From: Escherichia phage vB_EcoM_PTE-Eco15
Length of the DNA stretch: 64,000 bases
Sequence record: PQ352352.2
Direction: 5' to 3' (one strand)
The translations under genes were made by a program, and so were the position numbers. The notes under the pieces were generated by a model. The model made no database searches. It worked only from the letters and a program-made list of their open reading frames with translations, and had not been told where the DNA came from. Below, in pieces: positions 27,422 through 28,875 of the stretch; position 1 is the stretch's first letter; every line of letters starts with the position of its first letter.

Positions 27422-27637
27422 ATGAAACGTAAAATTGTTCAGAACTGCACTAATGATGAATTTGAAGATGTATTATTTGATCCAAATTTGGTAGTAGTTC
27501 AAAAGGAACATACTAGCAAGTTTACTCACTTGACTTCTGTTTATGTGTATGAGAAAGTCGGTGATAAACAGCCAATTTACGGTGTATTTCGTGAAATTAC
27601 TGAAGACGGCACAACTTACTGGAAGGAAATTTATTAA
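27422..27637 (+). CDS. Hypothetical small protein
   Basis: 71 aa ORF with RBS GAGGAAA. Confidence 0.5.
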
Positions 27638-28056
27638 TGGCTATTAAATTTGAAGTTAATAAATGGTATCAATTTAAAAATAAACAAGCTCAAGAAAATT
27701 TTATTAAAGACCATACTGATAACGGAATCTATGCGCGGCGTTTAGGTATGGAACCTTTTAAAATTTTAGATGCTGATTATCTTGGGCGTCCTACTAAAAT
27801 TATGACATCCATAGGTGTACTCAAACGTTGTGCCGGTGGTGATATCCTTGACGAAAACTTTATCTGGCTCTCTACTAACGAAGCTGGGTTCTTTGATGAA
27901 GTGGAAAATCCATATCAGGCAGCTGAAGAGCAAGAGCAGGAAGAGCAAGAACAAATAGAAGATTTCACAGAATTCCCGGTAATGAAAGTTACTATTGAAA
28001 ATAATGAACAGGCGTGGTCCTTGTATCAGATGTTGAAAGCTCACTTTAAGGAATAA
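27637..28056 (+). CDS. Hypothetical protein with acidic EQ-repeat segment
   Basis: 139 aa; [10 protein letters not shown]. Confidence 0.5.
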
Positions 28057-28058
28057 TT

Positions 28059-28235
28059 ATGCCTCTTTATGATTATAAATGTCAATCCAAAGACTGCGCA
28101 AAAGAATACGAAAAAATCAAGAAAATTTCTGAAAGGGATACTGATGTATGTCCTGATTGTCATCGGATTGCTATTCGGTTAGTTTCCGCTCCTAAGCATG
28201 TGAATGGTGGATTTTACGACTTACTTAAAGGGTGA
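28059..28235 (+). CDS. Small zinc-ribbon protein (FmdB-like)
   Basis: 58-codon ORF found by eye; MPLYDYKC ... CPDC pattern typical of FmdB-family zinc ribbons. Confidence 0.45.
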   Translation: MPLYDYKCQSKDCAKEYEKIKKISERDTDVCPDCHRIAIRLVSAPKHVNGGFYDLLKG

Positions 28236-28237
28236 TT

Positions 28238-28609
28238 ATGTTTAAAATCGGTAAGAAGTATCGTATTCGCGAAGGCGAAGAAAAGAAATATCTAATGTCT
28301 GCTATTTATAGGAATGGTTCTATTAATGCTGTAATATCTACAAGCGAATTTATCGTTGAAGATATGAAAGGTCATAATGTTACGATGATTAGTACAGCAT
28401 CTGGAAATGACGGAAAAATTCTTCACAGTATGCAGAGTAATGTTCTAATTTATGCTGAAGAATTTGACTTCTTCGAAGAAGTTCCCGAAAATTTTGATTT
28501 TGGATGCACTATCACTATGAAATCTGGTGACCCCCTTTCCTTTACAGTTAAAGATGAAAGAAGTCGCTTGAGAGTTATTAGTCTCCTTCAAGCCATTAAA
28601 TTTAAGTGA
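28238..28609 (+). CDS. Hypothetical protein
   Basis: 123 codons from ATG. Confidence 0.5.
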   Translation: MFKIGKKYRIREGEEKKYLMSAIYRNGSINAVISTSEFIVEDMKGHNVTMISTASGNDGKILHSMQSNVLIYAEEFDFFEEVPENFDFGCTITMKSGDPLSFTVKDERSRLRVISLLQAIKFK

Positions 28610-28875
28610 AAATTATGAAATATGTTAATCGTTCTATCGCAGCATTAGTATTAGCAGTATCTTTAGTAGGATGTACTGATGCTGATAATGCAACCAAAGT
28701 TTTGTCTTCAAGTGGTTTTACTAATATTGAAATCACTGGATACAATTGGTTTGGTTGCTCTGAAAATGATTTCCAGCATACTGGATTTCGTGCTATTGGA
28801 CCTACTGGGCAGAAAGTAGAAGGAACAGTATGTTCTGGTCTATTCTTCAAGGATTCGACTATTCGTTTTAAATAA
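28606..28875 (+). CDS. Putative lipoprotein
   Basis: 89 aa; signal peptide with lipobox LVGC. Confidence 0.5.
   Translation: MKIMKYVNRSIAALVLAVSLVGCTDADNATKVLSSSGFTNIEITGYNWFGCSENDFQHTGFRAIGPTGQKVEGTVCSGLFFKDSTIRFK

Follow-up and report, generated by a model that had tools for sequence, protein, structure and literature searches.

Three early genes of phage T4 located before the topoisomerase gene 39, namely cef, goF and 39.2, have published phenotypes. The product of cef is a folded monomer (PMC8076793), and the same paper, citing Pulitzer 1985, states that it is needed to mature a subset of the T4 tRNAs. GoF is an abundant early protein, present at approximately 20,000 copies per cell and dispensable in the laboratory (PMC12152347, PMC2988021), and its gene lies within 11 kb of DNA whose deletion causes no growth defect (PMC12152347). 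The goF mutants D25Y and G84R permit growth of T4 on rho (nusD) hosts (PMC2988021, PMC12152347). The closest solved structures of the GoF family are FeoA, SloR, IdeR and Hfq (PMC12152347). According to PMC4396842 and PMC5153855, Gp39.2 tips the open/closed equilibrium of host GroEL toward the open state, and T4 requires it in order to grow on certain groEL mutants; the size of T4 Gp39.2, 58 residues, has been confirmed (PMC5153855). The present work concerns a block of five small genes, positions 27422-28875, that precedes gene 39 in Escherichia phage vB_EcoM_PTE-Eco15 (record PQ352352.2). The window, i.e. the whole stretch of DNA that was analyzed, comprises 64,000 nucleotides, and all positions are counted on this stretch.

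The block was identified, with a probability of roughly 0.85, as the T4-type early genes cef - goF - 39.2 - (goF paralogue) - 39.1. The identification follows from the record of phage RB32, which is 94% identical over positions 27250-28950 and annotates cef, goF, 39.2 and 39.1. The same interval is 99.6% identical in vB_Eco_BGP and 99.5% identical in vB_EcoM_Lutter, and it was matched by 579 phage records, 418 of which covered at least 80% of it. The family assignments were backed by Pfam, PHROGs and NCBIfam matches. Moreover, the alignment with T4 showed the same genes as in the window, except for the goF paralogue. The window phage is a Tequatrovirus, and the region is an ordinary one that has largely been described already, a textbook T4 early region. 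The five genes are as follows.

27422..27637, + strand: cef, 71 residues, modifier of suppressor tRNAs / T4 tRNA maturation factor (Pfam, PHROG)
27637..28056, + strand: goF / comC-alpha, 139 residues, LSm-like N-terminal domain, acidic linker and small C-terminal domain
28059..28235, + strand: 39.2, 58 residues, FmdB-type zinc ribbon, orthologue of T4 Gp39.2 (NwgI)
28238..28609, + strand: goF paralogue, 123 residues, RB32ORF005c / RB69ORF005c type, not in T4
28615..28875, + strand: 39.1, 86-residue precursor, 67 residues when mature, predicted secreted lipoprotein (lipobox, phrog_902)

The sequence-only reading had placed five small open reading frames in this interval, and all five were found there on the plus strand. 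Profile and structure searches showed that they are not anonymous, four of them corresponding to cef, goF, 39.2 and 39.1 and the fifth to a paralogue of goF belonging to a family reported in 2025. The claim that they lack a T4 core function was correct insofar as the genes are accessory, T4 goF lying in the deletable region, but four of them are named T4 genes. The open reading frames are not due to chance, as homologues were present in 1011 phage records for cef, 733 for goF, 875 for 39.2, 593 for the paralogue and 1070 for 39.1. Furthermore, all five genes are under purifying selection, with pairwise dN/dS values well below 1. These values, and those given below, come from seven comparisons with Tequatrovirus relatives, since only 17 IMG/VR loci were recovered using cef as the anchor. 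Searches of PDB sequences with cef, with 39.2 and with profiles of 39.1 and of the goF family gave no match, and the zinc ribbon was the sole match when the proteins of the block were scanned against NCBIfam.

The first gene, cef, matched Pfam PF24050 (T4_Cef) with an E value of 4.6e-35 and 119.7 bits (cut-off 27), residues 1-70 covering all of the profile (positions 1-67 of 67), so that the protein is a full-length member of the family. It also matched phrog_1354 (E 3.3e-38) and shares 100% identity with M89919, a T4 record. Its dN/dS is about 0.04. In the window phage, Cef would thus be expected to help some of the phage tRNAs to mature.

Gene 39.2 encodes an FmdB-like zinc ribbon, with matches to PF09723 (E 7.1e-11, 42.4 bits, cut-off 34.4) and TIGR02605 (E 3e-11, 43.2 bits, cut-off 31.3). 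The four cysteines characteristic of the FmdB family are located at residues 8, 13, 31 and 34. The ribbon had been read earlier as CxxC...CPDC; the family and the second pair, CPDC, were correct, but the first pair is C-x4-C (CQSKDC). The protein shows two conservative differences from the 58-residue protein of the re-sequenced T4 genome MT984581 and is its orthologue, and dN/dS ranges from 0 to 0.15. By its orthology, Gp39.2 would push host GroEL to the open, cochaperone-binding state. The labels "hypothetical protein" and "FmdB-like transcriptional regulator" conceal the known biology of cef, goF and the GroEL modulator 39.2.

The start codon of goF overlaps the stop codon of cef. The gene is near-identical to T4 goF, save for a 6-nucleotide indel in the acidic repeat, and the protein matched phrog_622 along its entire length with an E value of 2.3e-39. 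D25 and G84, the sites of the rho-suppressor mutations, are wild type as read from the translation, and the protein is orthologous to T4 GoF, these two residues included. The dN/dS values of 0.19-0.37 are not evenly spread along the gene, since the divergence clusters in two places.

27799..27852, + strand: hypervariable segment of goF, residues 55-72 (column-entropy peak among 119 orthologues)
27926..27954, + strand: imperfect GAAGAGCAA-type repeat coding the acidic run of goF (tandem repeats, period 6 and 9)

In residues 55-72, dN was 0.50-0.56 and dS ranged from 0.6 to saturated, as compared with a dN of 0.02-0.10 in the flanks. Because dN and dS are both very high, the exchange of old divergent cassettes appears to fit the sequences better than simple positive selection. 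The segment aligned roughly with a low-confidence loop (residues 56-63) of the model of the paralogue. These 18 residues could steer experiments on what LSm-like proteins recognize. The second place is the acidic linker, where the EQ repeat is prone to slippage, giving orthologues of 134, 136, 137, 139, 140 or 141 residues that differ in the number of EQ copies. During experimental evolution of T4, a 21-bp in-frame deletion, removing seven residues, arose in the acidic region of GoF and spread (PMC9271167).

The 123-residue gene begins at ATG 28238, as annotated in relatives, while a GTG two codons earlier (28232) would give 125 residues. It corresponds to RB32ORF005c, labelled "similar to RB69ORF005c" in RB32, and it was not found in T4 when the window was aligned with T4, including the re-sequenced genome. 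Pairwise BLASTP of GoF against this protein was not significant, and the relationship was visible with profiles only; the protein matched phrog_622 over residues 1-123 with an E value of 1.1e-28. Both proteins can be aligned over their full extent with the goF-like proteins encoded by Gaprivervirus and Jiaodavirus phages, and they have in common the motifs F-K-x-G-K-x-Y near the N terminus and T-I/V...L-K/Q-A near the C terminus, as well as E-F-x-F-F-E-E-V where the barrel ends. On these sequence grounds, the gene is a full-length goF paralogue. The model of its N-terminal region is a bent five-stranded antiparallel beta-sheet, the closest solved structures being FeoA/IdeR-type SH3-like domains. 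The match with Pfam FRD2 was weak (E 0.033). When the model was compared with BFVD using Foldseek, the hits were unnamed T4-like phage proteins with weak E values, and none of GoF, Frd.2 or MotB.1 was named among them. The dN/dS of the paralogue is 0.20-0.31. A match to the Rfam manA RNA motif at 28384-28545, within this open reading frame, was rejected as likely due to chance (19 bits against a gathering threshold of 55, E 0.04).

In GoF and its paralogue, two domains are predicted, the N-terminal one being an SH3/LSm-like barrel. Both proteins would most likely bind RNA or RNA-handling factors and alter the stability of phage mRNA. The T4 protein GoF(D25Y) prolongs mRNA half-life post-transcriptionally, the wild-type protein having little effect, and it is for this mutant only that an effect on mRNA stability has been established in the GoF family (PMC12152347). 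By analogy, we infer that the paralogue may have an RNA-related activity. A lesser possibility is that the acidic linker of GoF is an internal nucleic acid mimic that holds the RNA-binding face of the LSm-like domain closed, which would account for activity being seen in D25Y only.

The possibility was also considered that both proteins act on transcription instead, docking on RNA polymerase or Rho through an SH3/Tudor/KOW-like barrel and modulating termination without binding RNA. An antiterminator was the original idea for GoF (PMC2988021, PMC12152347). This mode of action is judged unlikely, and RNA or RNA-handling factors are preferred as the partners of the two proteins.

Translation of gene 39.1 from ATG 28615 gives 86 residues; the alternative GTG at 28606 would give 89. 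The predicted signal peptide, MKYVNRS-IAALVLAVS-LVGC, carries the lipobox LVGC at residues 17-20 of the 86-residue form, preceded by a positively charged N terminus and a hydrophobic core, and has the sequence features of a signal peptidase II substrate, in agreement with the earlier description of this last open reading frame as a lipoprotein. The protein matched phrog_902 (E 3.2e-37). A profile search returned 2233 clusters at 50% identity with E values of 1e-3 or lower, 1119 of them with E values of 1e-10 or lower, and the members encountered belong to Straboviridae, to Menderavirus and to other phages with Gram-negative hosts. Of 195 members of the family, 91% retain the lipobox cysteine and 93-94% retain Cys48 and Cys73; the motifs TGY, TGF, GxVCSG and STIRF are also conserved. 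No match to the family was found in Pfam, NCBIfam or PDB sequences, and a literature search on 39.1 found nothing published. The AlphaFold2 model consists of one helix and four antiparallel strands; its fold, compared with structures in the PDB, is predicted to be a cystatin/PepSY-like helix and four-stranded sheet with the conserved cysteine pair. In OL964745 ("mutant T4 clone T4_7t1", L004), a 2-nucleotide deletion at approximately 2195-2215 affects codon 4 of 39.1 and leads to an early stop, the remainder of the gene, lipobox included, being intact.

A scan of bacterial genomes for 39.1 gave a single locus, at 3941-4204 of the Flagellimonas marina contig NZ_JBHSCL010000010 (L003), with 55% identity. 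Its neighbours are phage-like, with radical SAM, M15 peptidase, HNH/AP2 endonuclease and PIN-PhoH genes, and the locus is probably phage or prophage DNA in the assembly. The family appears to be phage-borne, the pattern-based bacterial scan being one that reaches close relatives only.

In E. coli, threonine or serine at position +2 of a lipoprotein predicts sorting to the outer membrane. Position +2 of 39.1 is threonine, and threonine or serine occupies it across the family; because of this residue, outer membrane sorting is predicted. Gp39.1 would thus be exported, lipid-modified at Cys20 and probably anchored in the outer membrane, facing the periplasm, where it would act on some conserved component of the envelope. 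It is 98% identical to the re-sequenced T4 protein and 98-99% identical in T2 and T4, and its dN/dS is 0.05-0.12. A conserved target is favoured over a receptor-specific blocker because the protein is this similar in T2 and T4 and evolves slowly. It is tentatively proposed, and must be regarded as doubtful, that Gp39.1 founds a large family of phage outer membrane lipoproteins that act periplasmically on a conserved envelope target. It might, for example, inhibit a periplasmic hydrolase or protease, or provide a receptor-independent block to superinfection or to lysis from without. If so, Gp39.1 would represent a takeover function of a type new for phages.

Known receptor-masking phage lipoproteins are early, small and anchored in the outer membrane. 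Gp39.1 could be such a factor, blocking the outer membrane receptor of the phage and excluding superinfection as do T5 Llp and Cor. Its predicted export, lipid anchor and probable outer membrane location (Thr at +2) would suit this role, as would its position in the early-gene block, goF being an early gene (PMC2988021). However, neither similarity in sequence or fold to Llp and Cor nor variation that tracks receptor use was found for 39.1, and receptor masking is considered improbable. Whichever its target, 39.1 occurs almost universally in Tequatrovirus, is common in the other T4-like phages of enterobacteria and evolves under strong constraint, which makes it a reasonable target for knockout and localization.

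The variability of the block was evaluated within the genus, taken as the approximately 497 records with gp39 at 95% identity or more, and across Straboviridae. At 90% identity or more to the window, cef was found in 498 records and 39.1 in 496. Gene 39.2 reached this level in 307 records, with most of the others at 60-80%. The goF gene is always present (82 records at 90% identity or more and 587 at 60-90%), and the paralogue was found in about 420 records at 80% identity or more. Gene content and order are therefore mostly fixed within Tequatrovirus. The variation in the genus consists of two differences in presence or absence, i.e. the paralogue and a 93-residue gene of which the window retains a remnant (see below), together with goF residues 55-72 and slippage of the EQ repeat. 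The two indels are independent, as the 93-residue gene is present without the paralogue in one locus (L014). The description of the cluster as variable or plastic is thus fair at subfamily depth, whereas within the genus its content and order are largely conserved.

In the other Straboviridae genera, the genes of this slot that recur most constantly are cef and 39.2, which were present in almost all of the related loci examined. The number of goF-like copies in the dexA-39 interval ranges from none detected by BLASTP to two, depending on the genus, and a MazG-like gene can intervene. Gene 39.1 is present in some genera, relocated in Slopekvirus and Menderavirus, and absent in others. In a Mosigvirus-like locus (L020, phiE142-like), the order is cef, goF, 39.2, goF-like gene and gene 39, with 39.1 missing from the slot, and in three other loci (L023-L025) no goF-like gene or 39.1 was found by BLASTP between cef and gene 39. 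In three IMG/VR contigs of 148-178 kb (L017-L019), the goF position, at approximately 3600-4500, is occupied by an open reading frame of 283-298 residues with 28-34% identity to GoF, perhaps an LSm-like protein that arose by duplication or fusion.

The sequence-only reading had also suggested that such a plastic region holds host-interaction or anti-defence functions, and that the acidic 139-residue protein could be a DNA mimic; such a mimic would block restriction enzymes or other DNA-binding defence proteins. Host interaction has support from the literature, through GroEL in the case of 39.2 and, on genetic grounds, through Rho in the case of goF. An anti-defence island would be in keeping with the two presence/absence differences in the slot, with the accessory nature of all five genes, which are dispensable (PMC12152347), and with the overall acidity of GoF, which has a pI of 4.65 and a net charge of -11. 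The acidic run is indeed present in the translation. However, 8 of the 11 net negative charges reside in the 20-residue variable linker, while the folded N-terminal domain carries only -1; the folded surface with a conserved acidic array that marks mimics of the Ocr, ArdA or Arn type was not found in GoF. The linker also differs in length among orthologues and in some is less acidic, with proline, threonine and serine, e.g. EEQEDPAPVTEPS. The evolved seven-residue linker deletion left one-step growth of T4 unchanged (PMC9271167), and the net charge of the paralogue is zero. As for an island, gene content is near-fixed in the genus, and cef, 39.2 and 39.1 are strongly constrained, with dN/dS values of 0.15 or lower. 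PADLOC gave a sole, weak match, to the goF paralogue (E 0.0047), a weak negative since PADLOC models defence and not counter-defence, and no literature link to anti-defence was found. Moreover, the published phenotypes indicate RNA metabolism and chaperonin function. An anti-defence island with a DNA mimic is therefore very unlikely. The products of the T4-type block would instead be small, dispensable proteins whose role is to tune the machinery of host and phage and not to oppose host defences.

In this region, the T4 reference genome deviates from re-sequenced T4. In NC_000866, positions 5560-5760 (L001), which are to be compared with window positions 28150-28700, there are 13 differences in 201 nucleotides from all re-sequenced T4 genomes, including two 1-nucleotide insertions. 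As a result, 39.2 is reduced to 45 residues and 39.1 to 65 residues without a signal peptide, its lipobox and frame being destroyed. The divergent sequence is confined to the Sanger-era records M89919, X06220, AF158101 and NC_000866, and the short forms of both proteins are probably artefacts of old sequencing errors. The idea that some of the open reading frames, chiefly the 123-residue one and the lipoprotein, are decaying or non-functional, which might be read from these short forms and from the lack of the 123-residue gene in T4, is already refuted, given that all re-sequenced T4 genomes, among them MT984581, encode the 58-residue 39.2 and the 86-residue 39.1 and that the paralogue and 39.1 have dN/dS values far below 1, with conservation in 593 phage records for the former and 1070 for the latter.

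The sequences flanking the block were also analyzed, and the following features were identified.

27281..27323, + strand: RNA hairpin in the motB-cef spacer, perfect 13-bp outer and 5-bp inner stem (folding)
27338..27408, + strand: remnant of a 93-residue gene, PHROG 3720 (alignment with phage e11/2)
28875..28892, + strand: AAAGGCC-UUCG-GGCCUUU tetraloop hairpin, putatively closing the transcription unit (fold -13.8 kcal/mol, z -2.43)
28890..28917, + strand: middle-promoter-like site of gene 39, TTTAGCTTTA, 12 nucleotides, TATAAT (read from sequence)
28945..30762, + strand: gene 39, fused 60+39 topoisomerase II large subunit, 605/606 residues (open reading frame; RB32 annotation "60plus39")

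The five genes are separated by spacers of -1, 2, 2 and 5 nucleotides. This tight spacing, together with the UUCG hairpin and the putative MotA-type promoter at the 3' end, suggests that they may be cotranscribed as one early unit that ends before a separately promoted gene 39. A scan for sigma-70 promoters gave fewer sites than in shuffled sequence and none in the motB-cef spacer. The UUCG hairpin is directly 3' of the 39.1 stop codon and is part of the larger -13.8 kcal/mol fold; a simple terminator scan did not call it, the T run being short. T4 middle promoters consist of a MotA box followed, after 12 +/- 1 bp, by a -10 element (PMC2988021). The putative gene 39 promoter agrees with the MotA box consensus (a/t)(a/t)(a/t)TGCTTtA at 9 of 10 positions, and its 12-nucleotide gap to the -10 element fits the required spacing. 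Both the hairpin and this site are invariant in T4 and RB32. Gene 39 itself is highly conserved, with 449 records at 99% identity or more and 497 at 95% or more by tblastn of gp39 and a dN/dS of about 0.01, and it is followed by rIIA.1 and rIIA.

Upstream of the block lie dexA, a motB.2-like gene, a 179-residue MotB.1-family gene with a MotB-like C terminus, and motB. The N-terminal part of the 179-residue protein (26146-26685) belongs to the LSm-like MotB.1 family (phrog_2333, E 9.5e-81), and its C-terminal segment is homologous to the C terminus of MotB (phrog_1671, E 8e-17). Counting GoF and its paralogue as well, the window therefore carries three GoF/MotB.1 superfamily members in a span of 2.5 kb.

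The hairpin in the motB-cef spacer folds at -20.2 kcal/mol (z -4.06), a value reached by none of 200 shuffled sequences, and is identical in T4, RB32 and e11/2. It sits in the 5' leader of the deleted 93-residue gene, and its candidate roles are an RNA processing site, a stabilizer or a terminator. In a Gaprivervirus locus, the same spacer is only about 49 nucleotides long. What survives of the 93-residue gene is its ribosome-binding site GGAG (27338-27341), the ATG at 27348 and approximately 19 codons of the C-terminal end, while an internal deletion of about 209 nucleotides has its junction at 27351/27352. The intact e11/2 protein matched phrog_3720 with an E value of 1.3e-46, as compared with the leftover frame of the window, which matched only the C-terminal end of the profile. 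Intact copies, with 95-99% identity, were found in 261 records, T2 included, i.e. in about half of the Tequatrovirus-level records, and T4 and RB32 share the stump of the window. A 39-residue open reading frame at 27289-27408 was rejected as a gene, being this stump read through the hairpin.

When compared with known systems, the 39.2 protein differs from the FmdB family in its first zinc knuckle, which is C-x4-C instead of CxxC, and the family label "FmdB-like transcriptional regulator" is not the activity demonstrated for the T4 protein, which is GroEL modulation. The lipoprotein resembles T5 Llp and Cor in its small size, its place in an early-gene block, its lipobox signal peptide and its probable outer membrane location. 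It differs from them in lacking a sequence or clear fold relationship and in being kept across phages that use different receptors.

The GoF of the window is an orthologue of the founding member of the GoF/MotB.1/Frd.2 family of LSm-like folds described in 2025 (PMC12152347). The paralogue resembles this family in its phrog_622 profile, in having two domains and in its structural neighbours of the FeoA/IdeR type, and differs from GoF in its short linker without the EQ repeat. The likeness to Hfq and other Sm/LSm RNA chaperones lies in the small bent five-stranded beta-barrel. The acidic C-terminal tip of Hfq competes with nucleic acid for the core of the protein, a loose parallel to the acidic linker of GoF. 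As compared with the T4 block, the window has an additional gene, the 123-residue goF paralogue, located between 39.2 and 39.1, two residues fewer in the EQ repeat of goF, and an unsplit (60+39) gene 39 that lacks the mobA/60.1 insertion. The gene order, the strand, the flanking hairpins and the putative gene 39 promoter are the same in both.

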